Below, one piece after another: positions 1 to 35,041 of a DNA stretch of 64,000 nt (positions are counted from its first letter, which is position 1; every line of letters starts with the position of its first letter). Under the pieces are notes generated by a model that saw only the letters and a program-made list of their open reading frames with translations, was not told where the DNA came from and made no database searches. A program made the translations under genes and the position numbers. This stretch comes from Armatimonadota bacterium (GTDB taxonomy: Bacteria > Armatimonadota > Fimbriimonadia > Fimbriimonadales > GBS-DC): assembly GCA_037445735.1 (NCBI GenBank), contig JBBIJY010000003.1:1-64000 (forward strand), written 5' to 3'.

Positions 1-601
1 GTGGTGAATGGCGAGCGCGTGCCCGGCTATCTGGACGAGGAGAATATCCCGCACGATTCGACCACCGAGACCTACGGCGGTCAAGCTCTATGTGGATAAC
101 TGGCGCTGGCGAGGCGTGCCTTTTTATTTGCGCACTGGCAAGCGCCTCGCCGCGGATCGCAGCGAGATTGCTATCCAGTTCAAAACACCCCCGTTACACC
201 TGTTCCGTGAAACGCCGCTCGATCGGCTGGAGCCGAACTGGTTTATTTTCGAGCTGAAGCCTGCCGAAGCGATCTACATCGTGGCGCAGGCGAAGAAGGT
301 GGGACTGGAGATGACGCCTCGCACGCTGATTCTGCGGGCGCCCTACCGCGAACCTGGTCAGGAAGGGTTCGACGCCTACACCACACTGCTGCTGGATGTG
401 CTGGAGGGCAATCGTCAGCACTTTTTGCGTTTTGATGAGGTGGAGTGGGCGTGGCGCGTGCTGGATCCCATCCTCAAAGCGTGGCAGAGCGATTCGGGTC
501 CGCTCCCCACCTATCCCGCCGGCTCCGAAGGACCCCCTGAAGCCACCCGCATTCTCGATTCGGAACACCACGCCTGGCGACCGCTCTGTGTGTCAGCATA
601 G
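1..601 (+). CDS. zwf: Glucose-6-phosphate 1-dehydrogenase, C-terminal part (5' end outside window; frameshift at ~76)
   Basis: Frame 1 reads VPGYLDEENIPHDSTTETY. Frame 2 continues AVKLYVDNWRWRGVPFYLRTGKRL...AYTTLLLDVLEG...FLRFDEVEWAW...YPAGSEGP. All are G6PD motifs. Confidence 0.93.
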
Positions 602-629
602 ATACCCTGCAAGGTATAATCGAAGCGGT

Positions 630-704
630 GCCGGCGTAGCTCAGCGGGAGAGCAGCCGCCTTGTAAGCGGAAGGTCAGGGGTTCGAATCCCCTCGCCGGC
701 TCCA
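630..704 (+). tRNA. tRNA-Thr (TGT)
   Basis: GCCGGCG acceptor stem, TAGCTCAG D-arm, CCGC-CTTGTAA-GCGG anticodon arm, GGTTCGAATCC T-loop, encoded CCA. TATAAT at 615-620. Confidence 0.96.
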
Positions 705-784
705 GAACACAACCTGTTGTGCTTCTAAACCCTCCAGCCCAGCAGATCGCGGAAGTGCGCTCCTATTCTCCTCTGGGGATTGCT

Positions 785-1066
785 ATGCAGACCTTCCGCC
801 TGATAGAGGGTGCTTCTACAGAGATAGAGCAAACCTTTGAACTCTGGCTCGAACACTTACACGCATGGGGCGCCAGCCCTAAGACCCTGCGCAATTATCG
901 CTGTGAAGTCGGGCAGTTTATTCGCTACCTGACGCTTACGCTGAACCTTGCTGCGGGCGATTGTACCAGTGCCCGCCAGAAACCTGCTGAAGTGCCTTAC
1001 CTGCGAGAAGCCTCTGAAGACCGAAGCACTCGCAAGGAGCCGAAAAATGCCACCACAAGGGGATAG
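785..1066 (+). pseudogene. Truncated tyrosine recombinase/integrase (N-terminal SAM-like domain only)
   Basis: FELWLEHL..GASPKTLRNY..EVGQFIRYL resembles the XerC/D/integrase N-terminus. No catalytic domain follows. It sits just 3' of a tRNA. Confidence 0.6.
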
Positions 1067-1098
1067 GCAGCAGGGGTATTCAGGACACAGGATATTGG

Positions 1099-1173
1099 TG
1101 GAGCCGACGGTGGGACTCGAACCCACGGCCTGCGCATTACGAGTGCGCCGCTCTACCGCTGAGCTACGTCGGC
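1099..1173 (-). tRNA. tRNA-Thr (CGT)
   Basis: Reverse complement GCCGACGTAGCTCAGCGGTAGAGC-GGCGCA-CTCGTAA-TGCGC...GGTTCGAGTCCC-ACCGTCGGCTCCA. Minus-strand TATAAT at 1184-1189. Confidence 0.96.
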
Positions 1174-1359
1174 TCTGGGAGGTATTATACCCTACCCCCA
1201 CCGCACGATTGCAAGTTCGATTGGGGCGCTCGAGCATCCCGTTTTTCGCGAGATGGCTAAAACCGTTCCTGCGAAACAGTCGTAGGGGGCGCGGTCACCG
1301 CGCCCCCTACTTCGGGGCAGCTCAAGCCGTTCCTGTGCGAACCAGAATGACCTGCACTC

Positions 1360-2133
1360 TCACGGATTGGGATCAGGATACCGCCCATTCCACCAGCGGT
1401 TGTCCTGATAGAGGGCATCCACCCTGCTCCAGCGGGCGTGACCATCCACGAAGGCGAAGTTCGTGCCGTTGCTGTGGCGCTCGTGGGGCGGCGACCAGCG
1501 TCCCGCACTGCTCGGCGCGTTGGGTCCCGAACCGTATCGGCAGGGCGGTAAGACGGGTGGATCCAGCGAGTAGCCGTGATTGTGCAGACAATCGGGATTG
1601 GTGAAGTCGGCGTCGTTGGGGTCGTCATTTTTACACGGGCGCGTGCCCGTACCACGACTGTCGCCAACGGCAATCGTCTGCGCAGGCGTTTCGATCATGC
1701 TTTCAACAACAGGCACATTCCAGCAGTTCACCCGCGAGAGACCCAGATACTGGTAGTTATAGCCGTAGGTCGCGTTGCGCCCTGCCGCGCCGAAATCCCA
1801 TCTGCGCGGAACCTGCGGACACACGAAGATGCCCGCGTTGCGCGTGTAGGTGAACACATGGTCATACCAGCGCACGGGCTGCCCGTGCGTTACATAGGAA
1901 AAGGGTGGGAACGCCTCCCAGTCCTGCACATACATGGCAATCGCCATGCCGTGCTGGCGCAGGTTGCTTAAGCAGCTGCTCTGGCGCGCTTTTGTGCGCG
2001 CCTGCGCAAACACGGGGAACAGAATCGCCGCCAGAATCGCGATAATCGCGATTACGACCAGCAGCTCGATCAAAGTAAACCCGCGGCGGTTCGGCAAGAG
2101 TGCCGTCCGCTCCCTCTGAAAGTGGCTCTCCAT
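1360..2133 (-). CDS. Prepilin-type N-terminal cleavage/methylation protein with DUF1559-like and H-X9-DG C-terminus
   Basis: [56 protein letters not shown] 2133 follows a GGAGG SD. Confidence 0.92.
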
Positions 2134-2232
2134 CGCTCGGTTCCTCCATTCTCTATAAATATACCCCTTAGCGTGGCTAAATATCAAGCCCCCGCCATAG
2201 CGAAGCTTAAGCGGCAATCTGTAAGGTTGGGT

Positions 2233-3297
2233 TTATTCAGCAGGTGGCGCGGGGTTCGGCTGGAAGATAGCGTCCACCAGCGAGTCGGCGCCGAAGCGCA
2301 CGGGGTCGGTGCAGGGTAAGCCCGTTTCCTGCGCGGTTTGATCGATGGTGGCGCGGGCTTCCGAATCGCTCAGGTGCGCCGTGTTGAGCGCGATTGCCGC
2401 CACGCGCGACGGGTAGAACGACCCGCCCGCCGACGCCAGCTCCTCATAGAGCCGAATCGCCACCGGGAGCGGCGGGATGGGCACATCAGGATAGCGCCAG
2501 ATGTGGGTCTGACCCGCGCGGTGAACCAGAATGAGGTGCGTAGGCTGGGCGCCGCGCAGCAGGGGCAGCGTCGCCGTCGAGGCGGGGTTGAACAGCGCAC
2601 CCTGCCCCTCGATATGCACCACATCGGCATCCTGCCCCAGCTGAAGGGTGAACTTCTCAATCGCGCCGGAGGCGAAGTCGACGCGCACGGCGTCCAGCGC
2701 GACCCCATCGCCCTCGATCATAATGCCCGTCTGACCCGTCGCGAGGAACTTTGAGCGCAGTCCGCGCTGGAGGCAGGCGCGATGCATCTCGATGCTGACG
2801 GTCATTTTGCCGACCGACATGTCGGTGCCGACGGTCAGCACGCGCTTGCAGGCGAGGTGGCGGGCGGCGCCGGTGCCGACCCGCAGGTCGGGCGGCTCGC
2901 GACGGATGTCCCAGACCCACTGGCAGCCGTGCAGGAACGGCTTCAGGTCGGGATGCTCCGCCATCGGGATGTGCAAGCCGTTCACGAGGTTCAGCCCTGC
3001 CATCACCGCCTGCCGCACCTCCTGCCACCACGCATCGGGCAGCATGCCGCCTGGCGGTGCGATGCCAATCACCAGCGTGTCGGGCTGATAGGCGAGCGCG
3101 TCCTGCAACGAGGCGACGATGGGCACCTCACGCGGGATGCCCGTCAGCGCGGGGATGGAGCCGCCCGCACACTCATAGTCGATGACGGCGACAATCGGGG
3201 CGCGACTGTAGCGCAGCAGTCCCAGCCCCGTCTTGCCGATGGGGCTGCGCAGACCCTCGTGCATCAGAAGTGCCAGTCGGTTCCGCTCGGTCAACAT
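2233..3297 (-). CDS. DUF1611 family P-loop protein (DgcN-like)
   Basis: GKTGLGLLRY, VIGIAPPGG, NGLH, VGTDMSVGKM, ATGQTGI, EGQG and DPVRFG motifs. Confidence 0.88.
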   Translation of the reverse strand: MLTERNRLALLMHEGLRSPIGKTGLGLLRYSRAPIVAVIDYECAGGSIPALTGIPREVPIVASLQDALAYQPDTLVIGIAPPGGMLPDAWWQEVRQAVMAGLNLVNGLHIPMAEHPDLKPFLHGCQWVWDIRREPPDLRVGTGAARHLACKRVLTVGTDMSVGKMTVSIEMHRACLQRGLRSKFLATGQTGIMIEGDGVALDAVRVDFASGAIEKFTLQLGQDADVVHIEGQGALFNPASTATLPLLRGAQPTHLILVHRAGQTHIWRYPDVPIPPLPVAIRLYEELASAGGSFYPSRVAAIALNTAHLSDSEARATIDQTAQETGLPCTDPVRFGADSLVDAIFQPNPAPPAE

Positions 3298-3308
3298 CGG
3301 TGGCTTCG

Positions 3309-6300
3309 CTATGGCACGCGCTGTGCCTGCAGGCTGAAAGTGAATCCCATCGCGCTGATGCTGCCCTGCATGCGGTCGCCCTCGATGGTGGCGTTCACCG
3401 TGATGCTCATGCCATCAGGCGTCTGGAAGGTGAACTGCAGGGCGCCGGTGGTCGGGTCGAACTGGGCGTCAGCGAAGTTCACCGTGCCGAGCAGGGTCTG
3501 GATGGTGCCGCTCCATCGTTCGCCCTGCTGGGTCAGCGTGAGGGTGAACTCGATGCCTTCGGGTGGCAGCGGGTCGCCGCCTGTGATGGTTCCCTTCCAG
3601 GTGCCTGCGGCGGTGCGCTGGGCAGGGCGCGACGGCTCGGCAGGGCGCTCGGAGCGCGACTCCTCGCGCGGGCGGTCAAACAGCGATGCAGGGCGCATGG
3701 TCTTCAGATACTCCTGACGCTCCTGCTCCAGCTGCTGGCGCCACTGGCGGTCGCGCTCGATATCGAAATAGAGCACGCCGTCGATGAAGGTCTTCTCGCA
3801 GCGGGCGTAGACGCTAAGCGGGTTATCGCTCCAGAGCGCGAGGTCGGCATGCTTGCCCGGCTCGATCGTGCCCACATAGCGGTCGATGCCCAGCTGTCTG
3901 GCGGGGTTGAGCGTGACGAGCTTGAGTGCCTCGACCTCGCTCATGCCGCCATATTTGATGGCTTTGGCGGCTTCGGTGTTGAGCCGTCGCGCCAGCTCGT
4001 TGCTATCGGAGTTGAAGGAGACGACCACACCGCGCGCCGCCATGAGCGCCCCGTTGTAGGGGATGGCGTCGTAGGCTTCCATTTTGTACGCCCACCAGTC
4101 GGAGAAGGTGGAGCCGCCGACGCCGTGTTGCGCCATCTCCTTCGCCACCTTATAGCCCTCCAGCACATGCTGGAAGGTGGCGATGCGCACGCCGAACTCC
4201 TCGCACACGCGCATCAGCATCAGAATCTCGTCCTGTCGATAGCTGTGGCAGTGGATGAGGCGCTTGCCTTCGAGAATCTCCAGGAGCGCTTCCAGCTGCA
4301 GGTCGCGGGCGGGCGGGTAGGGTCGCCTGCCAGCGCGATACTCTTCCTGCTGGCGTTTGTAATCTAACGCGGCGAGGAACCGCTCGCGCACGACCTGTTC
4401 GACGCCCATGCGGGTGGCAGGGTAGCGCGTGGGTGCGCCCGCTCGCCCGCCGAAGTTGGAGCGTTTCACATTCTCGCCCAGCGCGAACTTGATTCCAGGC
4501 GGCGCCTCTTTGAAGAGCATCTCGTCCGCGCTCTTGCCCCAGCGCCATTTGACCACTGCGTTCTGACCGCCAATCACATTGGCGGAGCCGTGCAGCACAT
4601 TGGCGGTGGTGACGCCGCCTGCCAGCTGGCGATAGATGTTCACATCGTCGGGGTTCAGCACATCCTGGATGCGCACTTCGGCGGTGCAGACATTGGTGCC
4701 CTCGTTCACGCCGCCGGAGATAGCGGTGTGGGAGTGGCAGTCGATGATGCCGGGCGTGAGGTGCTTGCCGGTGGCGTCGATGATTCGCGCACTGGCGGGC
4801 GCGGGCAGGTTCTTGCCGACGGCTCGAATCTTGCCATCCACAATCAGCACATCGGTGTTGGGCAGGGGCGCATCGGTTGTGAGCGTCCACACGGTGGCGT
4901 TGCGGATGAGCCAGGTGTTATGCTCATCGGCGGGCGGCGGCATGATGGGTTCCAGCTTCACGCGGGGCAGGCGCGGGGGCTCGTCCGGGCGCGATTCGCC
5001 CGACGGCTGGCTGGAGGGTTGCTCCTGCGGGCGCGTGCCGCCTTCCAGCGAGGCGGGTTCCTGCGGGATTCCAGCGGTGAGATGGTCGCAGCTGTCGCCG
5101 CAGTGCGCATGTTCGTAGCAGCAGGAGGCTTCATAGGGGCTGCTGGTCCCGGTGGCGTCCCAGTCGCGCGGGCGACGGAATCGGGGCATGGGCGGTGCCG
5201 CGCTCGCTGGCGGTTCTTCCAGCCGATAGCGCCTGCCATCCACAAACAGGTAGCGCAGGCGCGTGCGCGGTTCGAACAGCTCGCCCTCGCTGATGACAAA
5301 GCTCGCCAGCTTGCCCTTTTGAATGGAGCCGAGCCGATCGTCCACGCCGAACAGCCGCGCGGGGATCATCGTGAGCGCCTCCAGCGCCTTCTCCTTCGGC
5401 AGACCATTCGCAATCGCGATTCGGATATTGCGCAGCAGGCGTTCGGGATCGTTCAGTCCCTCGGTGGTGAAGGCGAAGGTCACGCCCTTCTCGTGCAGGA
5501 TGGCAGCGTTCTGGTAGGCGAGGGCGCGGTTGCGCAGGCTCGTGAGCGAAGGCGGGTTCAGCGGGTCATAGGTGCGCAGGGGTTCGGGCATCTCCATGCT
5601 CAACAGGATGGGGATTTTGCGTCTGGCGAGCGTGTCGGCGATTCGGGCGGCTTCCTGCCCGCCCGCGATAATGAGTTTCAATTTAAACTCATCGGCAATT
5701 CGGATGGCTCGCAGGATGTCCTGCGCGTTATTGGCGAGCGCAATAAGGGGCATCTCCTGCTTCAGCACGGGCTGGAGCGCGTCCAGTGCGCGATTGAGTG
5801 TCGGGCGCGGCTTGCCGTCGGGCGATTTGCGATAGATCGCCCACACCTGCGCCTGGTGCTGGGCGTCGTAGAAGGTCTGACGCACCAGCGCGATGGCGCC
5901 CATCAGCGAGCTGGGGTAGCCGCCGCCGAAACCCTCTTCCGAAACGGCACGCCCGCGCAGGTTCATATGGACGCCGAAGTCGGGGCGAATGACCGTCGCG
6001 GCGGGTGAGCCGTCGCCCAGGCTCACCAGTGCGCTGGTGCCCGACAGGATGCCGTGTGGGGGCACCACGAGCGCTGCCACGAAGCCCGCGCGGCGCCAGC
6101 GTGCCAGCGCGCCGCTATCGGGCTGATACAGCACCGACGCCTGCCGCTCCGGACGCACCTGCGCATTCGACGCCGTGTTGCCACGCTCATAGGCAGCGTA
6201 GGCGGGATCGTTCGCCTGTGCGGGCATGCCCAGCGCGGTGAAGCCGTCGATAAAGCCCGGATAGACCGTCAGCCCTGTGCCGTCGATCACTTCGGCATCG

Positions 6301-9535: not shown

Positions 9536-11083
9536 CTATCCACCTGTGGAACCAAAGTTGAACAGCACAATCAGCAAATCGGCATCGTCGACATAGGAGT
9601 CGCCTGTGAGGTCCAGGTCGGTGTTCCAGGTGCCGTATGCCATCAGGATGGTGAGCAGGTCGTTGTCGTCCACGATGCCGTCTCCATTCAAATCGCCGTT
9701 GCCCAGCACCACATGCACATAGCCGGGCGAATCGGTCTCGATAGGCACGCTTTCCACTGTGCCCGGCAGCGAGCGGCGCAGGCGAACTTTGATGTCATGG
9801 ACGCCGACGGGCGTGTTGGCAAGGAAGAAGTTGCCGCTGGCGTCGAGGGGAGCAATCATTTCGTATTTCAGTTCGCCATCCTGATAGAACTGCACGACCG
9901 CTTCCTGCCCCGCATAGCCGCCGTTCCAGCCTTCCAGCTCCGTACCGCCCATCAAAAAGCCGCTGAGCGGACCGAAAGCACGCAGAACACCGTTGGTTTC
10001 CAGCACATAGACGGTGCCATCGGCGCCAATAGCGGGCGAGCTGGCAATGCTGGATGAACCCAGCAAATAAACCCAGCGAGTCAACCCGTTTGCGGGGTTA
10101 ATGGCATAGACGCGCCAGCCGCCGCTGCCGACCACATAGATGGTGCCGTCAGCTCCCACTGCAGGCGAACCGGTGCGTGTGCCAAAACTGGCTCGCCAGC
10201 GAAGAACACCCTGATGGCTATAGGCTCTGAGTCGCGAGTCCCACGACCCAAAATAGACGCCATCATCCGTTACGGCAGGACCGCCTTCGATCGTGTTATC
10301 GGTGACCACCATCCACAGTTGCTGTCCTGACAGGCTCACTGCACGGAAGGCGAAATCGAACGAGCCGAAAAAGAGGCGGTCGTTTGCGAGCGCAATAGTG
10401 CCCCTGACGGGATAGAACACGGGAAACCGCCACAGGATGGTGCCGTTGGGGCGAACAGCATTAAGATAGTTCGCGGAGCCGACATAGATGGTGCCGTCCT
10501 CGCCGAAGCATGGCGTGCTGTTCGCCTCCCAGTCCAGATAGAGTCGCCATGCGACCGTGCCGTTCGGGTTGACGCAGTAGAGGTAGCCGCCGGGCGTCTG
10601 CCCGTTCGTGACATAGATGCGCCCGTCGGGTCCGATCGTGGGTGAGGAGCGCACTTCGGTGCCGCCCAGATAGAGGCTCCAGCGCAGGGTTCCATTCGGG
10701 TTAAGCGCGATCAGCATCGCGTCGTTCGGATTGCCAATCACATAGATGGCGCCGTCGGCGCCAATCGCGGGTGTGGAGTAGGGCACGCTGAAGCCAGCCG
10801 CCCAGCGCCAGCGGCGCGTGCCATTCGGGTTCACCGCATCCACGCCGATAGCGGTCGGCACATAGATGGTACCGTCGGCAGCGACAGCGGGGGAGGCGAA
10901 GGTGCGACCGCCCGCGTTATAGCTCCAGCGCAGGCTGCCGTTGGTCGGCGCACCCAGTATGGTGCGGCGCGTGTTGCGATAATCGCGCCCTAACGAGGGC
11001 CACGGTGCGCTCGGCTGGAGCTGCGCCCAGCCATAACTGTACAGGCTGACCCCAATCAGCCCAATCCATTTCCACCTGCTCAT
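9536..11083 (-). CDS. Secreted PQQ-like beta-propeller protein with C-terminal dockerin-like tail
   Basis: Signal peptide; repeated SPAIGADGTIY...NPNGT.RW blades; tail GDLNGDGIVDDNDLL...DLTGDSYVDDADLLIVLFNFG. Confidence 0.88.
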   Translation of the reverse strand: MSRWKWIGLIGVSLYSYGWAQLQPSAPWPSLGRDYRNTRRTILGAPTNGSLRWSYNAGGRTFASPAVAADGTIYVPTAIGVDAVNPNGTRRWRWAAGFSVPYSTPAIGADGAIYVIGNPNDAMLIALNPNGTLRWSLYLGGTEVRSSPTIGPDGRIYVTNGQTPGGYLYCVNPNGTVAWRLYLDWEANSTPCFGEDGTIYVGSANYLNAVRPNGTILWRFPVFYPVRGTIALANDRLFFGSFDFAFRAVSLSGQQLWMVVTDNTIEGGPAVTDDGVYFGSWDSRLRAYSHQGVLRWRASFGTRTGSPAVGADGTIYVVGSGGWRVYAINPANGLTRWVYLLGSSSIASSPAIGADGTVYVLETNGVLRAFGPLSGFLMGGTELEGWNGGYAGQEAVVQFYQDGELKYEMIAPLDASGNFFLANTPVGVHDIKVRLRRSLPGTVESVPIETDSPGYVHVVLGNGDLNGDGIVDDNDLLTILMAYGTWNTDLDLTGDSYVDDADLLIVLFNFGSTGG

Positions 11084-11161
11084 AGCGGCTCCTTTCCCTG
11101 CTCTATTATACACCAACTCTGGCGGGGTGGCTGCTCTGCAAAAGCACCAGTTCGAGTGGAT

Positions 11162-12169
11162 TCAGACCCGGATTGGCTCCGCCTCGCCCCGCTTCACATG
11201 GTGGAGCACGCTCTCCAGCACTGTGTCGGGCGTGATGCCATCTGCCTCCGCTTCGAAGTTGAGCAGGATTCGGTGGCGCAGGGCGGGTTTGAGCGCCTTT
11301 TCGATATCCTCGCGCGCCACATTGTAGCGTCCGTCTAATAGACCATAGACCTTGCCGGCAAGGATGAGCGCCTGGGCGCCGCGCGGGCTGGAGCCGTAGC
11401 GCACATAGCGATTGACTTCGGGGGGCGCGTGGGGCGAGCCGGGATGGGTCGCCACGATGAGGCGCAGGGCGAACTCCTGCACGGGGTGGGCGATGGGCAC
11501 CTCGCGCACCACCTGCTGCATGCGCAGCAGGGTCTCTTTGTCGGCGACGGCGCTCGCCTGCGGCGTCTCCACGCCCGTCGTGCGGTTCACAATCTCGCGC
11601 AGTTCTTCCAGCGACGGATAGCCCACCAGAATCTTGAAGAAGAAGCGATCCAGCTGGGCTTCGGGCAGGGGGTAGGTTCCCTCCTGTTCGATGGGGTTCT
11701 GGGTTGCCAGCACCCAGAAGGGCGGCTCGATGGGGTAGCGTCTGCCGGCGACCGTCACCGCCTGCTCCTGCATCGCCTCCAGCAGCGCCGATTGGGTTTT
11801 GGGCGTGGCGCGGTTGATCTCGTCCGCCAGCAGGATATTGGTGAAGACCGGTCCGGGGCGGAACACGAAGGTGCGGGCGCCTGTTTCGCTCTCCGCCAGG
11901 ATGTTTGTGCCTGTTACATCGGCGGGCATCAGGTCAGGCGTGAACTGGATTCGGGCGAACTGGAGGTTGAGCGCCTGTGCCAGCGTGCGCACCAGCAGCG
12001 TTTTGCCCAGACCGGGCACGCCTTCGAGCAGGGCGTGCCCGCCCGCCGCGACCGCCACCAGCACATTTTCCACCACCGCCTCCTGACCCACAATCACTTT
12101 CGCGATTTCCGCGCGCAAGGCTTCGAATCGCTCGCGAAACCATTCCGCCACCTGCTTGCCGTTCTCCAT
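11162..12169 (-). CDS. moxR: MoxR family AAA+ ATPase
   Basis: GHALLEGVPGLGKT, RIQFTPDLMPAD, LADEINRA, ATQNPIEQEGTYPLPEAQLDRF. Confidence 0.95.
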   Translation of the reverse strand: MENGKQVAEWFRERFEALRAEIAKVIVGQEAVVENVLVAVAAGGHALLEGVPGLGKTLLVRTLAQALNLQFARIQFTPDLMPADVTGTNILAESETGARTFVFRPGPVFTNILLADEINRATPKTQSALLEAMQEQAVTVAGRRYPIEPPFWVLATQNPIEQEGTYPLPEAQLDRFFFKILVGYPSLEELREIVNRTTGVETPQASAVADKETLLRMQQVVREVPIAHPVQEFALRLIVATHPGSPHAPPEVNRYVRYGSSPRGAQALILAGKVYGLLDGRYNVAREDIEKALKPALRHRILLNFEAEADGITPDTVLESVLHHVKRGEAEPIRV

Positions 12170-12197
12170 AGCTTGAATTTTACCCTGTGTTGTTGAT

Positions 12198-12237
12198 GCC
12201 CTCACCCCGTGCCCCTCTCCCACGCTGTGGGAGAGGG
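12198..12237. repeat. REP-like palindromic repeat (CCCTCACCCC..CCCTCTCCC-loop-GGGAGAGGG)
   Basis: The same motif occurs at eight sites in the window. Confidence 0.8.
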
Positions 12238-12306
12238 ATTCTGAATGCAGGGCGCGCTGCCGTGCGCCCCTCCATTGTTCACGGGCAGGGATGCCCGTGC
12301 TACCTG

Positions 12307-13311
12307 TTACTGGAGCAGTCGCTGGCGGAGCCATGTGGCACGCTGGGCGGGCGCGTAATCGGGTTCGGGTGGGGCGTAGACGCTCAGTTCGAACAGCAGA
12401 TGGTCGGCGCGGTCGCGCTGGGCGGGGTTGCTGGTGAGCATTGCCAGCATGCGATAGACCGCCAGGGCGCGCAGGGTGGTTCCCAGCGAGAGCGCGGCGG
12501 CGTGGCGCAGGGTGGTGGTCAGTTCTTCCCATTCGGCATGGAGTTCCTCGATGGGGAGCTGGGCGCGGGCGTCCAGTTCGGCGTCGATGAGGGTGCGGAG
12601 CGTGCCGCGCAGACGCGCCAGCAGCTCTGGCAGCGGGTCGTGCCGACCCAGCATGGAAATCTGCACATAGCCCTCAAAGGCGAGGCTGCCCTCACCATAT
12701 AGCCCGCGTGTGTGGCAGCCGAGCGCCTGCAACGCCTCCAGCCAGCGCGTGATCTGCCGTGCCCGCTGCAGACCCATCAGGTGCATCAGCAGTCCCAGTC
12801 GCGCGCCGGAGCCAAGATTGATGGGCGAGGCGGTCAGATAGCCCAGTCGGGACGAGTAGCCCCAGCGGAGCGGCAGGGCGTTCAACCGCTCTTCCCAGCC
12901 CTGCAGTTCGTTCACCATGCGGTCGGGTTGCCAGCCAGCGTGGGTGATCTGCAGGCGCAGGTGGTCTTCCTCGTTCAGCAGGGCGCTGACGCTGCCGTTC
13001 GGGTTGAGCAGCACCCATCGGTGGGGTAATGCGGGCAGCAGGGCGGGGCTGATGATGCGGGCGCCTGTCAGGCGCGCCCGCTGGTCAGGGCTGAGTCGGC
13101 TCAGCTCAATTGCGCCGCCTGCGCCCAGCCCCATCGGCTCCAGCGCCTGCCGCAATTGCATCGCCGCTGCCTGCAACTGCGCGTCGCTCGCCACATGCGG
13201 GAACGGCAGATGCAACAGGTTGCGCGCCAGTCGTACCCGCTGGGAAATGACCACATCGCGGTACGGCGCAGGCTCCATCAGCCAGCTCAGGTACGCCCCG
13301 TCAGCATTCAC
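12307..13311 (-). CDS. ATP:guanido phosphotransferase / McsB-like protein (divergent)
   Basis: VVISQRVRLARNL..LPFP, LNEEDHLRLQ, LGYLTASPINLGSG, RGLYGEGS. The GTG start overlaps the upstream TGA. Confidence 0.8.
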   Translation of the reverse strand: MNADGAYLSWLMEPAPYRDVVISQRVRLARNLLHLPFPHVASDAQLQAAAMQLRQALEPMGLGAGGAIELSRLSPDQRARLTGARIISPALLPALPHRWVLLNPNGSVSALLNEEDHLRLQITHAGWQPDRMVNELQGWEERLNALPLRWGYSSRLGYLTASPINLGSGARLGLLMHLMGLQRARQITRWLEALQALGCHTRGLYGEGSLAFEGYVQISMLGRHDPLPELLARLRGTLRTLIDAELDARAQLPIEELHAEWEELTTTLRHAAALSLGTTLRALAVYRMLAMLTSNPAQRDRADHLLFELSVYAPPEPDYAPAQRATWLRQRLLQ

Positions 13312-14348
13312 CGATAGACCTCCCATTTGATACGCGCCATCAGATAGCTCAGGATCGATTCTGCCCCGCGATTGAGATTCAGCCCGACGGGTGTCAGCCC
13401 ATCGTACACCACGCCCGTTTCGGGGTCATACAGCGCCAGCTGGTGGATGTTATCGCCGTGAAACCACAGCAGGGCGCGTCGTGCGTAGTAGCGGAACAGG
13501 CGGTAGCGATCGAAGGCGTGATAGGCGTCCAGAAAGGCTTCGACGGTTGCGCCCGCGCACACAGGCTGCTGGTCGAACAGGGCGCGGCTGCGCCCGCGGA
13601 AGTACCAGCCTTCGGTGCCAATCGCGCTGAAGTAGCCTGTGGGGGCGAAGGTGGTCTCGATGAGAAACAGCAGCGCCTCACGGGCGATTTTGAGCCAGTC
13701 GGGTTGCTGCAGGCGGGTGGCAGCCCGCAGCAGTGCCTGCGGCAGGCGCGGATTCTCGTAGGTCAGGAACGGCTCGAACCAGCGCCAGTCTGGCTCGCGC
13801 GTGAGCTGGTACTGCTCCATTAGATGGCTCACCAGATGGCGCAGGCGGTCGGGTTCCTCCTCTTCCAGCATTAAAAACGCAACGGAGCGCAGCGGCTTAA
13901 TCTGATAGAAGTGCTTCCAGGCGGGGCGCAGCAGTGCGTCGGCGCGAGATGACCACTCACTGTCGGGCAGCAGCTTCTTGAGCGTGTAAAGCGACCAGAT
14001 GGTGCGCCCGAACGAATCGTCGCTGCCGACCTCATCCACCCAGCGCCCTTCCGCGTCGCGGAAGTTATGGAACCGTCCGCCGGGCAGCTGCGCCTCTTCA
14101 ATATAACGCAGGCATATTTCGATCAGGCGCGTCGGGAACTGCTCATCGGGCAACAGCAACCAGTCGGGCTGGCGTGGCTGCAGCCATTTCAGCCACGCGC
14201 CCACAATCAGCCCACGCGCCTGATCGTCTATCGAGAAGCCATGCTCCACCCATGGCTCCCCATAGCGCGTATGCTGCCAGATGCCCAGCGGTGTCAGCAA
14301 CCGATTCAGGTGTTGCAGATTGACAGGTGGCAGTGAAGGCTGCATCAC
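13308..14348 (-). CDS. Stand-alone helical glycosidase-like domain, of the type found C-terminal in some glycosyltransferases
   Basis: GIWQH, DDQARGL, DDSFGRTIW, WFEPFLTYENPRLPQAL, FDQQP, WFHGDN, YDGL, NRGAES motifs. Confidence 0.7.
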   Translation of the reverse strand: MMQPSLPPVNLQHLNRLLTPLGIWQHTRYGEPWVEHGFSIDDQARGLIVGAWLKWLQPRQPDWLLLPDEQFPTRLIEICLRYIEEAQLPGGRFHNFRDAEGRWVDEVGSDDSFGRTIWSLYTLKKLLPDSEWSSRADALLRPAWKHFYQIKPLRSVAFLMLEEEEPDRLRHLVSHLMEQYQLTREPDWRWFEPFLTYENPRLPQALLRAATRLQQPDWLKIAREALLFLIETTFAPTGYFSAIGTEGWYFRGRSRALFDQQPVCAGATVEAFLDAYHAFDRYRLFRYYARRALLWFHGDNIHQLALYDPETGVVYDGLTPVGLNLNRGAESILSYLMARIKWEVYR

Positions 14349-14362: not shown

Positions 14363-15967
14363 TCAAAACGGCGTGCTCCAGCTGAGGGCGAACAGGTTGA
14401 TCCGATAATCGAGGCGCGAATCGACGCGATCCTGATAGTGCCAGGGGGCGATGGTGAGCGACCATGCGACGCCGTTCGGCAGTTGATAGCGCAGGGCAAC
14501 GGTCAGGAACCGCCCCTCCGTGTTGCCATCGGGCAGGAGAAGCGGGTTATCGGTGCTGCTGACGAACCGGGTGTAGAGCAGGCTTGCGTTCAGGCGTGAG
14601 TTGACCGTCCACTGCAGACCCACCATCGACGAGCGCGTATCGGGCAGGAAATGTGGCAGGGCAAGCAGTTCGTCCGCGCCGCCCGTTCCATGCCAGCGTT
14701 CGATGCGATGCTCGGCAATCAGGGTCAGTTGCGGCTGGAGGGTGCAGCTGCCACCGATGAGCAGCTGGTCGCTGCGCAGGCGGGTGGCGCGGCGGTCGTT
14801 CAGCCATCGCTGGCGGCTGAGCGTGAGGTAAACAACCCCGTTCGCGAGGCTGGCGTCGAGGTTCAGCCGCGCGGTTTCGCGTCGGCTCCAGAAGAGCGTA
14901 TGGGATGGCTCATCGGTCGGCTGATGGCTCCAGCGCTGGCTCGCGCCGTACAGGCTGAGCCGAACAGTGCGTGCGAGCCGACCCCACAGCCGCGCTTCGA
15001 GACCCTCGCGCTGCACTGGCTCCGTGCCGCTCTCACCGTCCACGCGCTCAATCGCCTGACGGCGGACGCCTATCTGCAATCGCCAGTTGCCCAGCTGTTG
15101 CACGAGGCTGAGCGCCCCTGTGCGTCGCTCACGGCTCCAGTTGTTGCGCACCAGTGGCAGGTTCGCCCGCTCGCGCTCCAGCGTCAGCCCGATTGTGGTC
15201 GTGTCGCCCGGTGTCAGGTCGGTGGCGAGCGTGAGGCGCTGCAGGCGGCTGGTGGTTCGCTGTGGCTGCTCGAACTGCGCTTCCGACCAGACGGCTTCCA
15301 CACCCAGCACGGGTGTCGGCTCCCACAGGTAGCCTGTCTGCCAGCGCTGGAGCGTGATGTCGGGGCGTGTGGCGGTTCGATCGCGATAGCGCCAGCGCGT
15401 GTATTGCAGGCTGAGCCGCCCCGCGCCTGCAACGCCCTCCAGCATCATATCCCACGCCTGTGCCGTCTGGTCGTAGGGCACATGCGCGCTTGCGAAGCGT
15501 CGTCGCAAGAGTTCGTCACGGAATCGCACGGTGAGCGCGAAGTCGGGCGTGATCAGATAGCGCACGGTCGCCTCCCGATTGAGCCGTTCGCTCAGCGGTG
15601 CAGGTGCGGTGCCAGGGTCTGCGAACTGGGCGCGAGCGTGCTGTGCCTGCAGGGTCAGGCGTGCGGGCACAAGATGCATCAGCGCGTCGCCGCGGGTGTC
15701 CTGATCGCCGATGCCCTGCCAGAGCCATCGGATGGCAGCGCGCTCATAGCGGATCGCGCGCAGGAAGAAGCCGCGCAGCGGCTGTGAATAGTGGCGAAAC
15801 CTGGCAGCGTTGCCGCTCAAGCCCCAGTTCGACCAGCCCAGTTCCAGCTGGGTGCGCGCCTGCACGGGCGGCAGGGGTGTTTGCGCCGAAGCTATCAGCA
15901 GCAGACAGCCCGCCGCTTTAATGGCGCAGAAAGAGCGCGTCGCTATTCGAACCGTGATGAGCCACAT
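14363..15967 (-). CDS. Outer-membrane beta-barrel, putative MtrB/PioB-like porin (start uncertain)
   Basis: Alternating amphipathic strands rich in R/W/Y. C-terminal aromatic residue (LFALSWSTPF). Directly downstream of a decaheme cytochrome. Confidence 0.72.
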   Translation of the reverse strand: MWLITVRIATRSFCAIKAAGCLLLIASAQTPLPPVQARTQLELGWSNWGLSGNAARFRHYSQPLRGFFLRAIRYERAAIRWLWQGIGDQDTRGDALMHLVPARLTLQAQHARAQFADPGTAPAPLSERLNREATVRYLITPDFALTVRFRDELLRRRFASAHVPYDQTAQAWDMMLEGVAGAGRLSLQYTRWRYRDRTATRPDITLQRWQTGYLWEPTPVLGVEAVWSEAQFEQPQRTTSRLQRLTLATDLTPGDTTTIGLTLERERANLPLVRNNWSRERRTGALSLVQQLGNWRLQIGVRRQAIERVDGESGTEPVQREGLEARLWGRLARTVRLSLYGASQRWSHQPTDEPSHTLFWSRRETARLNLDASLANGVVYLTLSRQRWLNDRRATRLRSDQLLIGGSCTLQPQLTLIAEHRIERWHGTGGADELLALPHFLPDTRSSMVGLQWTVNSRLNASLLYTRFVSSTDNPLLLPDGNTEGRFLTVALRYQLPNGVAWSLTIAPWHYQDRVDSRLDYRINLFALSWSTPF

Positions 15968-16895
15968 GGCAGCCGCTCCCCCAGCAGTTGCGGGCGGGAT
16001 AATGCGCCACGCCCTTATCGGTGTGGCACTGGGCGCACAACCCGCGCGAGAACAGTTTGAGCATGCGCGGGTTCACCGAGCCGTGCGGACGATGGCACTC
16101 CAGACAGCTGTCGCCCATCCAGCCCGCCACCGGCTCATGCTCGTACATAAATGGACCCATCTTGTCCGCGTGGCAGTGGGTACACATCTCGCGGATGAGC
16201 CGCTCCCGCTTAACGCTCTCCCGATTGGGATGGGCATCGTGGCAATCGGTGCAGAGCAGTCGCCCTTCGGGCAGCGGGTGATGGAAGCTCAGTCGGAACT
16301 CGCTTGCCTCGCGTGCATGGCAGCCGCTGCAGAGCGCGGTCTCCTCGCCTTTCAGCAGCGGGTGCGAGGGCGAGCGCGCGCTCGGCAGGACGGGCGAGAC
16401 CTGCGTATTCTGTGGGGCGCGCTGATGAATCTGATGGCAGCTGATGCAGCTCAGCCCCGCACGCGCGTGCGCCGTGCGATGCCACTGGCTGGGTCGCATC
16501 GTCGCGCCATGACAGCGCAGGCAGGCGCGGGAGACCGCTTCAGGATCGAGTTTGCTGTAGCGGATGACCCCCTTCGGCGCCAGCACCTCACGCAGGTGGA
16601 TGCCGCCCGGTCCGTGGCAGCCCTCACAGCCCTGGCGGTCGATCGGCAGGTGCGGGTCTGCCATATAGGGCGCGTGTGCCGAGTTGCGAAACGAAATCAC
16701 ATAGGAGCGGTGGCAGGGCACGCATGCTGGCTCGCCCAGATAGTCCTCGCGCTTCGCCTCGGCGAACAGATTGAGCGGGAAGGTGCGCTCGCGTGCCTGC
16801 TGACGCGCCGCCGCCATTAGCAGCAACGCGAGCAGTATCGCTCCCATTATCCAGGGGCAACCCCGCTGGAATCGCCAGACTGTTGGTCTCTCCAT
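15918..16895 (-). CDS. MtrA/DmsE-type periplasmic decaheme c-type cytochrome
   Basis: Signal peptide. Nine CxxCH (CVPCH, CEGCH, CLRCH, CISCH, CSGCH, CTDCH, CTHCH, CLECH, CAQCH) plus CWGSGCH. Family motifs GPF..EH.PV, CH.PHGS and HGSN. Confidence 0.9.
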   Translation of the reverse strand: MERPTVWRFQRGCPWIMGAILLALLLMAAARQQARERTFPLNLFAEAKREDYLGEPACVPCHRSYVISFRNSAHAPYMADPHLPIDRQGCEGCHGPGGIHLREVLAPKGVIRYSKLDPEAVSRACLRCHGATMRPSQWHRTAHARAGLSCISCHQIHQRAPQNTQVSPVLPSARSPSHPLLKGEETALCSGCHAREASEFRLSFHHPLPEGRLLCTDCHDAHPNRESVKRERLIREMCTHCHADKMGPFMYEHEPVAGWMGDSCLECHRPHGSVNPRMLKLFSRGLCAQCHTDKGVAHYPARNCWGSGCHVAHHGSNSDALFLRH

Positions 16896-16901
16896 TGTTT
16901 T

Positions 16902-18863
16902 TCAGTTATTGCGGGCGCCCTGCTCGATCCAGAGCCGAATGAGCAGAATCTGTTCGTCGCTCAATCGCCCGCCCAGTGGCATGCGCGAGCCGACAGGCGG
17001 GTTGTCTTCCGCCACCTTGCGATAGAGCAGGCTATGTATCGGGTCGCCGGGCACCACGCGAATCCAGTTCGGGTCCTGCACGCTGGGCACATTCACGATG
17101 CTGGCATAGGCGTTGCCTGCGCTGAGATCGAGATCGGCGGCGCGTCCCAGCGGGTCGTGGCAGCCACGAATGGCACACCGCTGCGTGAAGATGGGCTGAA
17201 TCGTGTGCTGGAAGCTCACCAGCACCTGCAGGGTCAGCGTCGCGGTGCGGGTCAGACTGCCCGCTGTACCCTGCACCGTGAGTGTGTAGCTGGCGCTGGC
17301 GACCTGCGGGTCGACCTGCAGGGTGAGCTGGCTCTGCTGATCAGGGCGAACGGCAGAGGGATTAAAGGTCGCGCTGATTCCTGCTGGCAATCCGCTGATG
17401 GTGAGGCTCACTGGTTCGTCGAACCCGCCGACTGCGCTGATGGCGACCTGAACGGTGGCGGTGCCGCCCTGCGCCACGCTCAGCGACGAGGGATTGAGCG
17501 CGATCAGGAAATCGGGCGGGACGCGCACCTCCAGCGTGAGCGTTGCTGTGCGGGTGCGGCTCGCTGCGCTGCCCACCACCTGCAGCGTGTAGGTGCCGGG
17601 CGCGACCTGCGCTGCCACCTGCAGGTTCAGCGTTGCGCTCGCCTGATTCGGTGCGAGGCTGCCCGGTGTGAACGAGGCGGACACACCGGCGGGCGCGCCC
17701 TGCAGGCTGAGCGCCACCGTTTCACTGAATCCGCCCACGCGCGTGAGGCGCACCGTCGCACTCCCGACACCGCCCTGCTGAACCGTCAGGCTCGATGGCT
17801 CCACGCCGATGGAGAAGTCGGGCGCCTCGCTGATGCGCAGGGTGAGCGTCGCCGTGCGGGTGAGGCTGCCCGCCACGCCGCGCACCGTGATGGAGTGCGT
17901 GCCTGACGACGCACTGGCGCTGACCTGCACCGTCATGCGAGCGGTGGTCTGGTCGCCGGGCAGGGTGGACGGGTTGAAGCTCACCGTAACGCCCGCCGGG
18001 ATGCCCGTCGCGCTGAACGCCACTGGCTGCGCGAAGCCCCCGATGCGCGTTACGGTGATGCCCACTGTTGCTTGACCGCCTGGCTGCAGGCTCACCTCGC
18101 TGCTGCCCAGCGTGAGCGTGAAGTCGGGCGCGACGGCAAGCGCCAAATTGAACTGTGCCGTGCGCCGAATCGAGCCGCTGCTGGCGACCACGGTCAGTGA
18201 AAAAGTGCCCACAGGCGCGTTAGCAGCAGCCCGGACGGTGAGCGTGCTGGTGTCCTGTGAACCGCTGAGTGTGGGCGGTGTGAACTCCGCTGAAACGCCC
18301 GCTGGCGCGCTTTCGAGGCTGAGCGTGATGGGGTTCGCGAAGCCGCCGATGCGCGTCAGCAGCACCTGCAGCGTGCCGCTGCCACCCTGCACCAGCCCGA
18401 TGCTGCTCGCGCTGAGCTGAATGTTGAAATCGGGCGCGGCGGGCGTGATACTGAGCTGGATGCGTGCCTCGCGCAGCACCGCGCCGCCCTGCGCCCGCAC
18501 CAGAATGGTGTAAGTGCCCGCGGGCGTCTGCAGCGAGGCGCGAAGGGTCAGCTGGGTGCTGGGCTGATTGGGCGGCACAGGGTTCACGCTGAAGCTCGCC
18601 TCCACACCCTGCGGCACACCTTCGAGGCTCAACCGGATTGGCTCCCCGAAGCCGCCCACGCGCTCCAGCCCTATCGTGAGCGTCGCCTGACCGCCCTGTA
18701 ATGCACTCAGGCTGGGATTGCGGATCGACACAAAGAAGTGGGGTCCCGTGGCAGGACCGCGCCCGCCCCCACAGCCCGTCAGCAGGAGCAGGCAGCCCAG
18801 CAGCGCTATCTGCTGACCTCGCTGGATGGTTGTGTCCCGGAATTGTTCTGTCAACCCTCTCAA
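16902..18863 (-). CDS. Lipoprotein with five ~102-aa Ig-like repeats and a C-terminal monoheme cytochrome c-like domain
   Basis: TTG 18863 after an AAGGAAGG SD; lipobox LLLTG-C. Five PDF...QGG...GGF...P.G...GTY..T repeats. Tail VSF..IQPIF..RCAIRGCH...VVPGDP..SLL...MP...WIEQGA. Confidence 0.85.
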   Translation of the reverse strand: MRGLTEQFRDTTIQRGQQIALLGCLLLLTGCGGGRGPATGPHFFVSIRNPSLSALQGGQATLTIGLERVGGFGEPIRLSLEGVPQGVEASFSVNPVPPNQPSTQLTLRASLQTPAGTYTILVRAQGGAVLREARIQLSITPAAPDFNIQLSASSIGLVQGGSGTLQVLLTRIGGFANPITLSLESAPAGVSAEFTPPTLSGSQDTSTLTVRAAANAPVGTFSLTVVASSGSIRRTAQFNLALAVAPDFTLTLGSSEVSLQPGGQATVGITVTRIGGFAQPVAFSATGIPAGVTVSFNPSTLPGDQTTARMTVQVSASASSGTHSITVRGVAGSLTRTATLTLRISEAPDFSIGVEPSSLTVQQGGVGSATVRLTRVGGFSETVALSLQGAPAGVSASFTPGSLAPNQASATLNLQVAAQVAPGTYTLQVVGSAASRTRTATLTLEVRVPPDFLIALNPSSLSVAQGGTATVQVAISAVGGFDEPVSLTISGLPAGISATFNPSAVRPDQQSQLTLQVDPQVASASYTLTVQGTAGSLTRTATLTLQVLVSFQHTIQPIFTQRCAIRGCHDPLGRAADLDLSAGNAYASIVNVPSVQDPNWIRVVPGDPIHSLLYRKVAEDNPPVGSRMPLGGRLSDEQILLIRLWIEQGARNN

Positions 18864-18943
18864 CGCCCGTGCCTTCCTTTCCCGTTTCCCTGAACGAAGC
18901 AGGCACCTCACGGTTCCCGTCGGCGGGTAAAATGGGAGAGCGC

Positions 18944-19819
18944 ATGGGCTGGCAAGGGGTTCCGGCAGAGGTGCTGACGCGGCTGGAACGGTATCGGTTG
19001 CAGCCGCGCAAGATGCATGCGGCGGCGATTCGGGGAGAGCGGCTCTCGCCACGCAAGGGTCTCTCCATCGAGTTCGCCGACTATCGCCATTACGCGCCGG
19101 GCGACGACCTGCGCCATCTGGACTGGAACATTCTGGCACGCCTTGATCGCGCCTACCTGCGCACCTATCAGGATGAGCAGGAGCTGCCCCTCTTTCTGCT
19201 GCTGGATTGCTCGGCGTCGATGGAGTTCGGCGAGCCGCCGAAACTGAACCTGGCACGGTCCTTAGCGGCATGTCTGGGCTATATCGGGCTGATAGCGGGC
19301 GATGCGGTCTATCCGATAGCGCTGGATGGTCGGGCAAGCGAGATTCGGGCGCTGCGCGGGCGCATCAGCTATCGGCGGCTTGTTGAGTGGTTGCGTTCGC
19401 GCGAGGCGGACGGGCGCGACCTGAACCGCAGCCTGCAACGGTTCGCCCACGCCAACCTGCCCACGGGCATGGTGTTCCTGTTGACCGATGGGCTGGACGA
19501 GAGCCTGCCCGACGCCCTGCGCGCGCTCGCCAGCCGCCGTCACGAGCTGGTGCTGATCCAGATTCTTTCCGAAGCCGAGTTAGACCCCGATCTGGAAGGC
19601 GATTTGAAGCTGATCGACGCAGAAACGAGCGAGACGCTGGAGATTACGGCGACGGGCAGCGTGTTAGCTGAGTATCGTCGTCGGCTGAACGCTCACAACG
19701 AGGCGATAGCGGGCGCATGCCGGCGCGTTGGGGCGCACTATCTGCTGGTGCGCAACAGTCAGTCGCCCGAAGAGGTGCTGGTGCGCGGGCTGCGTCCGCT
19801 GGGCATTCTGGGCGATTAG
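18944..19819 (+). CDS. DUF58 (MoxR-associated, vWA-like) protein
   Basis: G.SIEFADYRHYAPGDDLRHLDW, LLLDCSASM, LLTDG. Confidence 0.92.
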   Translation: MGWQGVPAEVLTRLERYRLQPRKMHAAAIRGERLSPRKGLSIEFADYRHYAPGDDLRHLDWNILARLDRAYLRTYQDEQELPLFLLLDCSASMEFGEPPKLNLARSLAACLGYIGLIAGDAVYPIALDGRASEIRALRGRISYRRLVEWLRSREADGRDLNRSLQRFAHANLPTGMVFLLTDGLDESLPDALRALASRRHELVLIQILSEAELDPDLEGDLKLIDAETSETLEITATGSVLAEYRRRLNAHNEAIAGACRRVGAHYLLVRNSQSPEEVLVRGLRPLGILGD

Positions 19820-34506: not shown

Positions 34507-34524
34507 ACAGCACCGGGCAGAGGA

Positions 34525-35037
34525 ATGAACGAGGCAAAACGGCTGACGGTGCTGGAGATTGAGACCCGAAAGTTCCGCCGCCGCCTGCGCGGGTATGACC
34601 CGACGGCGGTGGAAGCTTTCCTGCAAGAGGTTGCCGCCTGCTACGAAGAGGTGCTGACCGAGAATCAGCAGCTGCGCGAGGAACTGATCGGCTTGCGGGA
34701 GGAGGTGCAGCGCTATCGCACTCTGGAGAACACACTCAAGGAGTCGCTGGTGCTGGCGCAAAAGAGCGCGGATGAGACCCGCGCGAACGCCCATCGCGAA
34801 GCGGAGCTGATTCTGCAGGCGGCGCGTCAGCAAGCCGAGCAGATTCGGCGCGAAGCGGAGGCGCGCATCCAGCACCTGCTGAACGAAATCGAGGCTCTCG
34901 AAACCCGCAAGCGCACGCTGATTATCGAACTGCGCTCCATGCTGCTCTCACACCTGCAGGCGCTTGAAGAACCTTTGCTGGACAATCAACATACCCTTAT
35001 TGATGCCAGTGCCACTCCACAAGAGAGTCCATCTTAA
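34525..35037 (+). CDS. DivIVA-domain protein
   Basis: LT..EI....F.R.LRGYD...V.AFL followed by a coiled coil. Confidence 0.88.
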   Translation: MNEAKRLTVLEIETRKFRRRLRGYDPTAVEAFLQEVAACYEEVLTENQQLREELIGLREEVQRYRTLENTLKESLVLAQKSADETRANAHREAELILQAARQQAEQIRREAEARIQHLLNEIEALETRKRTLIIELRSMLLSHLQALEEPLLDNQHTLIDASATPQESPS

Positions 35038-35041
35038 TCTA

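Follow-up and report, generated by a model that had tools for sequence, protein, structure and literature searches.

How an outer-membrane electron conduit might work with a partner that carries only one heme is the question raised by three genes from a hot-spring bacterium of the phylum Armatimonadota. The genes are on the minus strand at positions 14363-18863 of the DNA analysed here, a stretch of 64,000 nucleotides termed the window. In order of transcription they encode a stalked monoheme lipoprotein, a decaheme cytochrome and an outer-membrane beta-barrel. Known outer-membrane conduits end in multiheme proteins, in which electrons hop from heme to heme. On the basis of homology, predicted fold and synteny, the decaheme cytochrome and the barrel can be assigned with good confidence to the Mtr type of trans-outer-membrane conduit, and the stalked protein is very likely a dedicated component of it. 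The full reading, in which an Mtr-type conduit is served by a swinging, surface-located stalked monoheme partner that replaces an eight-heme lipoprotein, has slightly less than an even chance of being correct.

The three genes are tightly packed, as an earlier note on this DNA had described. The open reading frame of the stalked protein spans 16902..19337, and within it the most likely start is a TTG at 18863, which is preceded by the purine-rich sequence ggaaaggaagg. Only 6 nt separate the stop of this gene (16902) from the ATG of the decaheme gene (16895). The 325-amino acid decaheme frame (15918..16895) in turn overlaps that of the 534-amino acid barrel (14363..15967): the barrel ATG at 15967 is 50 nt inside the decaheme gene and borrows the A and T of a His codon, that of the last heme motif. 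The barrel ends in the residues STPF, with the terminal Phe that the note had also read. The window DNA is 65% G+C and long shadow open reading frames are abundant, but the trio are considered real genes because relatives or family matches exist for all three. They would form one operon for an outer-membrane electron conduit. Coordinates are collected in Table 1.

The decaheme cytochrome has ten heme-attachment sites, the number given in the earlier note, with nine of the CXXCH form and one of the form CX4CH (CWGSGCH). By sequence it is a near-miss member of the DmsE/MtrA family. It scores 187.4 bits against the family profile TIGR03508, which has a cut-off of 192.2, and matches positions 1-257 of the 258 in the profile; in the genome-wide profile search the score was 184.3 bits. 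The best NCBIfam match is NF041028 (GSU2203 decaheme), at 202 bits against a cut-off of 325. Among solved structures the sole match is MtrA, chain 6r2q_A (E 3.1e-32, residues 44-311 aligned with 54-302), a chain that bears an odd molecule name in the structure file. The CX4CH motif precedes a shared C-terminal HGSN, as does the tenth CXXCH of MtrA. All heme Cys and His residues, including those of CX4CH, are invariant in an alignment of 13 Armatimonadota decahemes, and the protein is 43-55% identical to its counterparts in other lineages of the phylum. Since the decaheme family itself has an invariant CX4CH, maturation of this motif must take place in the host cell.

The barrel is not recognized by any Pfam or NCBIfam model. 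A family search against 1.84 billion representatives gave 104 clusters, with full-length members of ∼500-600 amino acids. None of 56 aligned members matches MtrB_PioB (PF11854) at E values up to 1, and generic porin models match a few of the 56. A profile search of solved structures with the family returned weak porin fragments only. Thus, where the earlier note had proposed comparison with the DmsE/MtrA and MtrB/PioB families, the decaheme came close to the cut-off of its family and the barrel lies outside the profile of the other. Shewanella MtrB has an N-terminal CXXC motif; the mature barrel sequence has a single Cys and no CXXC. Barrels of other lineages are 22-38% identical to that of the host.

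The predicted fold gives a different picture of the barrel. An AlphaFold2 model based on the 56-member alignment has a pLDDT of 90.7 and 26 strands, counted as DSSP elements; like all structure models reported here it is a prediction without hemes. The top Foldseek match is MtrB, 6r2q_B, with a TMq of 0.72, and the other listed rows are at or below 0.54. With VIA-align, the model and MtrB superpose with a Z score of 26.3 and a root mean square deviation of 2.9 Å over 486 residues; an LptD model is next, with a Z score of 17.3. As modelled, the barrel is MtrB-shaped with short loops, and shares the fold but not the sequence family of MtrB. At the level of prediction, these properties speak against the barrel being too small for the cytochrome or of an unrelated kind. 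Together with the MtrA match, they support the MtrA/MtrB-type pair that had been read from the sequence. The decaheme cytochrome would thread this compact 26-strand barrel and pass electrons across the outer membrane, as homology and the predicted fold suggest.

The third protein has no such precedent. Its N-terminus, MRGLTEQFRDTTIQRGQQIALLGCLLLLTG followed by CGGGRGPATGP, displays a hydrophobic stretch and then a canonical lipobox, L-T-G-C, with Cys31 as the expected lipidated residue. Cys31, Gly32 and Gly33 are invariant in eight of eight relatives. The stalk consists of five immunoglobulin-like (Ig-like) repeats of 103, 102, 102, 102 and 99 amino acids, which are 35-55% identical pairwise and match DUF5980 and several Ig-type Pfam models. 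The five repeats of ∼102 amino acids and the distal CAIRGCH motif (residues 563-569) reported earlier are therefore both present. The Ig repeats are also matched in six stretches by NF058595, a 'lipo-invert putative C-terminal anchoring domain' (62.4 bits against a cut-off of 37). Full-length relatives are 56-70% identical over the whole protein and 70-89% identical over the tip, which is the best conserved part. Three of them, P0121, L071 and L072, have four repeats, and in P0121 it is the third that has been cleanly lost. In the host protein there is one heme motif and no match to TIGR03507 (MtrC/OmcA), and as judged by profile matches the protein is outside every named cytochrome family. 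The eight-heme lipoproteins discussed below also have the sequence CGGG(G/R)GP following the lipobox. It was considered as a common sorting signal and rejected as generic, since 7 of the 118 N-termini picked crudely as lipoprotein-like in this genome have GG next and a stalkless cytochrome of 144 amino acids has the same sequence.

The tip appears to be a PSCyt1-type cytochrome c domain that would bind heme through conserved Cys, His and Met residues. It aligns with the PF07635 carriers P0125, P0132, P0136 and P0139, with the heme motif, a Met-Pro pair and a C-terminal WIxxGA in common, and also with domains of proteins assigned to other cytochrome c families. In an alignment of 35 related domains, CXXCH, CX3CH or CX4CH is found at the site of CAIRGCH; C19, C24, H25, M84, P85 and W101 (numbering of alignment A3) are invariant among 21 tip sequences. 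The AlphaFold2 model of the tip has a pLDDT of 91.7. In fold it is closest to the C-terminal heme domain of the hydrazine synthase alpha subunit, 5c2v_A (TMq 0.61, 28% identity, E 2e-3). The match to FoxE (5mab_A) has a sequence E value of 0.0043 over the last 50 residues only, and a fold TMq of 0.46 with a probability of 0.18. Class I cytochromes are found among the fold matches only at E values above 2, and MtoD is absent from the sequence matches to solved structures at E values up to 10 and from the 21 fold matches. The tip shares with PSCyt1 and hydrazine synthase alpha, and perhaps with FoxE, an N-terminal helix, the Cys...Cys-His motif, Met-Pro and a C-terminal WIxxGA helix. Those domains are found at the N-terminus of large proteins or within enzymes, whereas the tip ends an Ig stalk encoded beside a porin-cytochrome pair. 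These features agree with the heme-binding role proposed in the earlier note. Tip-like domains are present in 117 of 401 Armatimonadota genomes, mostly in proteins of ∼1000 amino acids.

What does the rest of the phylum have in place of the stalked protein? Species-representative genomes were scanned for barrel loci with a 13-sequence alignment and two peptide patterns, which gave 39 loci: 27 in Armatimonadota (Chthonomonadales, Fimbriimonadaceae and unclassified), six in Fervidibacter/Fervidibacterota, six without a lineage label and none labelled as another phylum. The patterns favour close relatives, so confinement of the family to Armatimonadota is not proven by this distribution. Among 401 sampled Armatimonadota genomes, 83 match the barrel profile at E ≤ 1e-5 and 60 at E ≤ 1e-100, patchily over families; a single-protein search found the barrel in only 2 of 24 genomes of the host's own family, both of them genus mates.

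Outside the genus, 34 of 37 loci have the decaheme gene upstream of the barrel and in the same orientation. Of the exceptions, L033 and L042 have no upstream DNA, and L034 has 3.5 kb of it with no decaheme. Within 3.5 kb past the barrel, a multiheme open reading frame is found in 28 of the 31 loci that have at least 1.2 kb of downstream DNA (28 of 37 overall). It is usually a lipoprotein of 480-520 amino acids with eight CXXCH motifs, matched by generic multiheme models only and weakly by 6i5b_A (E 1e-4), which we take to be OcwA. Six of the nine loci that lack it have less than 1 kb of downstream DNA; the others, L026, L027 and L034, have 2.4-6.8 kb.

The host and its genus mates depart from this pattern. 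Profile searches found no homolog of the eight-heme protein in the host genome or in three genus mates; the best matches there are at 18-25 bits (E 1e-5 in the host), to an unrelated UshA-like tetraheme protein. Conversely, a hidden Markov model of the tip domain has matches in genus loci L003-L006 and in none of the 37 loci outside the genus. Genomes G000, G001 and G002 have the complete trio, and G003, which is 97% complete, has none of it. Metagenomes contain eight loci with stalked relatives of the full-length type, five of which include the 3' end of the gene and downstream DNA. In four of the five (L069-L072, two of them nearly identical) the stalked gene is followed by the decaheme and barrel genes. 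Genomes and metagenomes together, the upstream position of the stalked gene is kept in seven of eight informative loci. The lipoprotein is thus co-conserved with the pair. The earlier description of it as standing in place of MtrC gains comparative support from this co-conservation, together with the absence here of the downstream multiheme gene that is usual elsewhere.

A quick maximum-likelihood tree was made of 43 barrels, after removal of the duplicates L003 and L004 and of rows that cover fewer than 450 positions of the profile. In this tree the seven barrels encoded with the stalked gene group together in one clade (SH-aLRT 100), the stem of which has a length of 1.25 changes per site. 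Placement of this clade among the other groups is not resolved by the quick tree; it is separate from the two Fimbriimonadaceae rows. The 6-nt spacing, presence and absence as a unit, the kept gene order, the loss of the eight-heme gene at the same time and the long stem branch are the grounds for regarding the stalked protein as a dedicated component.

In this clade the stalked protein may stand in for the eight-heme lipoprotein whose gene follows that of the barrel in most other Armatimonadota. In the host, its N-terminal anchor would be a lipid-modified Cys, and the five Ig domains would form a rod of the order of 20 nm (an estimate, not a computed value) with a single c-type heme, ligated by His and Met, at the end. 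A rod without cofactors cannot conduct, and hence the heme must move between partners or serve as an end point. Tentatively, and at somewhat less than even likelihood, the clade can be pictured as having discarded its multiheme surface cytochrome for a lipid-anchored 'fishing rod' of four or five Ig domains, whose end heme would swing from the conduit opening to targets at distances of tens of nanometres and back. Equally tentative is the corresponding view of the protein as a tethered, diffusive one-electron carrier at the cell surface rather than a heme wire. The rod would be on the outer face of the outer membrane, pivoting on the Gly-rich segment after the anchor, and the tip would make contact alternately with the decaheme, at its exposed end, and with acceptors or donors within one rod length. 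Electrons could flow either way, outward as an overflow sink for an aerobic heterotroph or inward from Fe(II).

The host genome is of 2.78 Mb and 99.2% complete. Its closest named proteins are from 'Fimbriimonadales bacterium' and 'bacterium HR15'. It encodes CcmE, which speaks for heme attachment at the tip, one heme-copper oxidase subunit I and an ACIII/Qrc-like complex, with the oxidase and the complex on the contig of the operon; genome searches found neither ResB nor RuBisCO. The organism is presumably an aerobic heterotroph.

Is the rod at the cell surface or in the periplasm? In the strongest alternative, a serious one though less likely, the protein is a periplasmic tethered shuttle. 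The anchor would be in the inner membrane or in the inner leaflet of the outer membrane, and the stalk would cross the periplasm, with the heme as the link from inner-membrane respiratory complexes to the decaheme at its periplasmic end. The protein would then act as MtoD and PioC do beside MtoAB and PioAB, and the conduit would lack an outer cytochrome, as in iron oxidizers. A five-Ig rod is, by estimate, of the order of the periplasm width, and the ACIII/Qrc-like complex and heme-copper oxidase on the same contig are natural partners of a monoheme cytochrome c. Neither of the tip's fold relatives, FoxE and the heme domain of hydrazine synthase alpha, is located at the cell surface. The loss of eight hemes and gain of one also parallels the difference between MtrCAB and MtoAB plus MtoD, as presented in the available parts of two sources (PMC4412085; 10.1101/2022.01.10.475773).

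Other observations weigh against a surface location or against replacement as such. Five of seven aligned close relatives have Arg at position -1 of the lipobox (A/V/T/N-R-C), which makes their anchoring uncertain because this is a non-canonical signal peptidase II site; it might point to a signal anchor, or to a form that is soluble in the periplasm. The closest relatives of the tip outside the clade are stalkless lipoproteins of 144 amino acids, 54-57% identical, in which a Gly-rich linker joins the lipobox to a CX4CH domain; short monoheme lipoproteins of this kind are, as a rule, held in the periplasm by their tether. An ordinary tethered cytochrome c of the periplasm may therefore have been the ancestor of the tip. 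These short proteins are found in two genomes that have their own pentaheme-decaheme-barrel-octaheme cluster elsewhere, in one of them 1 Mb away. The stalked gene is upstream of the decaheme and not in the downstream slot of the eight-heme gene, so the change was not a simple swap in place. Chthonomonas relatives (L026 and L027) have decaheme-barrel pairs without an outer cytochrome. Such a pair is typical of iron oxidizers, in which the monoheme partner is periplasmic. A heme-free complex prediction of barrel, decaheme and tip gave an ipSAE of 0.00 in both runs and is evidence neither way.

Against the periplasmic shuttle, a single heme on a non-conducting rod must move, and peptidoglycan should hinder it. 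Variation between four and five repeats fits a fixed span poorly, such Ig repeats are commoner in surface proteins, and the failure to find RuBisCO means that classic iron-oxidizing autotrophy is not indicated. Surface placement is accordingly favoured, weakly and by reasoning rather than measurement, because the protein has the slot of an outer lipoprotein cytochrome, because the repeat number varies, and because a rod fixed to one or other side of the cell wall would be unable to sweep through peptidoglycan.

Rather improbable is a further alternative, that the stalked protein is a co-transcribed neighbour with no part in the wiring, and serves in adhesion, sensing or redox chemistry of its own such as Fe(II) oxidation of the FoxE type. 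PSCyt1-like domains are found in many architectures across 117 of the 401 genomes of the phylum, and 72 metagenome loci that have only the tip show no decaheme or barrel in the fetched flanks. The weak FoxE match points the same way. So does L073, where a stalked gene 80% identical to that of the host has no decaheme or barrel within 6 kb, an observation that also weighs against a dedicated role. Positions 1-5006 of this locus contain the stalked gene, then a short repetitive stretch, a 775-amino acid propeller protein with a dockerin-like tail and a 371-amino acid membrane protein read as heme A synthase-like. A mere neighbour is harder to reconcile with the tight spacing, the presence or absence of the trio as a unit in the genus, the gene order, the simultaneous loss of the outer cytochrome and the long stem branch of the associated barrels. 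Least probable is a tip free of heme, a structural relic with a degenerate CAIRGCH: the motif is CX4CH rather than CXXCH, the PSCyt1 (PF07635) score of 12.3 bits (E 0.28) is below the cut-off of 22, which also counts against the assignment of the domain, and in P0127 the first Cys is absent from both domains. Against this, none of the 21 aligned tip sequences departs from the two Cys, the His or the Met-Pro; CX4CH is found again in many relatives and is the invariant tenth site of the decaheme family; and no part of the protein is better conserved than the tip.

In its working the system can be likened to MtrCAB or, should the stalked protein be periplasmic, to MtoAB plus MtoD. It resembles Shewanella MtrCAB (6R2Q) in having an MtrA-homologous decaheme, a predicted barrel that superposes on MtrB and a third, N-terminally anchored cytochrome in the operon. 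It differs in the size of the barrel (534 amino acids, compared with 649 residues in 6r2q_B), the lack of an MtrB_PioB profile match and the CX4CH form of the tenth heme site. The third protein differs most, with one heme on a five-Ig stalk and an upstream gene, whereas MtrC has ten hemes. With the other Armatimonadota modules it shares the decaheme and barrel families; here the eight-heme lipoprotein is gone, a stalked monoheme is added and the barrels form a long separate branch.

Tethered monoheme cytochromes such as cytochrome cy and the lipoproteins c551/c552 have an N-terminal anchor and a linker and carry one electron at a time. Linkers of the cytochrome cy type are short and flexible and act between inner-membrane complexes; the linker here, in contrast, is a long rod of folded domains beside an outer-membrane conduit. 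MtoAB-MtoD of Sideroxydans and PioABC of Rhodopseudomonas, as far as the available accounts describe them, also combine a decaheme and a barrel with a small co-encoded one-electron carrier and no multiheme outer cytochrome. MtoD and PioC are small soluble periplasmic proteins, whereas the PSCyt1-like monoheme is tethered via ∼500 residues of Ig repeats. The Pcc system of Geobacter (OmaB/OmbB/OmcB), according to the available parts of its descriptions (PMC4245776; PMC4282303), likewise has a periplasmic cytochrome, a porin-like barrel and an outer lipoprotein cytochrome. The periplasmic and outer cytochromes of Pcc differ, however, in having eight and 12 hemes, and the barrel is unrelated.

The claim in the earlier note that no extracellular electron transfer had been described in the lineage was too strong, in that the available part of one paper reports MtoAB-like proteins in a single Armatimonadota genome bin (PMC9671151), the sole mention of such genes in the phylum that was found. 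In a survey of outer-membrane multiheme cytochromes, a term search of the available text found no mention of the phylum (PMC11475568). A full-text literature search, which did not cover supplements (e.g. Table S6 and Figure S7 of PMC9671151), yielded no publication that describes either a stalked monoheme partner or this barrel family. Among the literature searched, a stalked monoheme in place of a multiheme partner is thus an arrangement not previously described.

Table 1. Features of the conduit locus, with positions in the window
Feature	Position	Strand	Basis
Stalked monoheme gene, 653 amino acids	16902..18863	-	Open reading frame, start region, DUF5980/Ig-type Pfam matches, NF058595, full-length relatives
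Signal peptide and lipobox L-T-G-C (Cys31), then Gly-rich CGGGRGPATGP	18771..18863	-	Sequence reading
Five tandem Ig-like repeats, residues 41-548	17220..18743	-	Repeat lengths and identity
Tip domain, residues 549-653, probable PSCyt1-like monoheme cytochrome c	16905..17219	-	Alignment of 35 domains, AlphaFold2 model, fold match
CAIRGCH (CX4CH) heme-attachment motif, residues 563-569 of 653	17157..17177	-	Motif and alignment
Met628-Pro629, candidate distal heme ligand (role inferred)	16977..16982	-	Invariant in alignments A3 and A5
MtrA/MtoA-class decaheme cytochrome, 325 amino acids, nine CXXCH and one CX4CH	15918..16895	-	TIGR03508, NF041028, 6r2q_A
CWGSGCH, tenth heme motif (CX4CH); barrel start codon overlaps its His codon	15966..15986	-	C304, C309 and H310 invariant
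Compact 26-strand MtrB-like outer-membrane barrel (predicted), 534 amino acids, signal peptide, C-terminal Phe	14363..15967	-	AlphaFold2 model, Foldseek, VIA-align

Related conduit clusters display further cytochrome genes. A pentaheme gene is found directly upstream of the decaheme gene in clusters of the Fervidibacter type (L008 4822-5841, L010 4271-5242). The host keeps a pentaheme homolog elsewhere in its genome (G000:C15:33598-34650, E 1.4e-108), beside a 471-amino acid protein without a family match. The pentaheme may be a periplasmic or inner-membrane feeder of the conduit. In Chthonomonas, L036 (1656-9777) has two tandem decaheme-barrel pairs. A multiheme lipoprotein, with seven CXXCH and one CX4CH, comes after the second pair only. 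The barrel of the first pair groups with those of the octaheme-less pairs L026 and L027, which suggests an old duplication into two-part and three-part versions. Small monoheme cytochromes of 110-142 amino acids are encoded beside some clusters (L036 4955-5314, L037 10179-10607, L043 12449-12781). They belong to Chthonomonas and Fimbriimonadaceae relatives, have a C-terminal DxDxDG-type calcium-binding or dockerin-like motif, and differ in family from the tip domain.

Around the operon in the window, the gene at 13308-14348, 15 nt past the barrel, was considered as a member of the system and rejected; it has no family match and was not found in L004 or L006. By Pfam, the flanks (9536-13326 and 18950-19819) encode a PQQ/beta-propeller protein with a dockerin-like tail and an ATP:guanido phosphotransferase. 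A MoxR-like ATPase gene and a DUF58-like gene, read by eye from their translations, are nearby on the opposite strand, and none of the flanking genes was connected with the conduit. A scan for promoters and terminators gave one site each, at or below the shuffle mean, and an Rfam scan gave two tRNAs only, both distant from the conduit locus. Farther away, a 1153-amino acid STAND-type NTPase with NACHT/NB-ARC and TPR repeats is encoded on the minus strand at 35042-38503. It is inside a stretch of low G+C content (34001-38000, 46-51% compared with ∼65% around it). The gene looks like a lateral acquisition, and its product could have a role in defence or signalling.

A single heme on a non-conducting stalk, if this interpretation is true, would work by motion, and the last step of electron transfer would follow a different physical principle. 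The clade would also represent a natural experiment on the minimum number of hemes that an outer component needs. The compact 26-strand barrel family has no name in current profile libraries, and is paired with a decaheme in about one-fifth of the sampled Armatimonadota, including relatives of the cultured Chthonomonas and Fervidibacter. Annotation pipelines that rely on the MtrB/PioB profile will miss conduits of this family. Armatimonadota are regarded as aerobic sugar degraders; perhaps some members also exchange electrons with minerals or with partner organisms in hot springs and soils.

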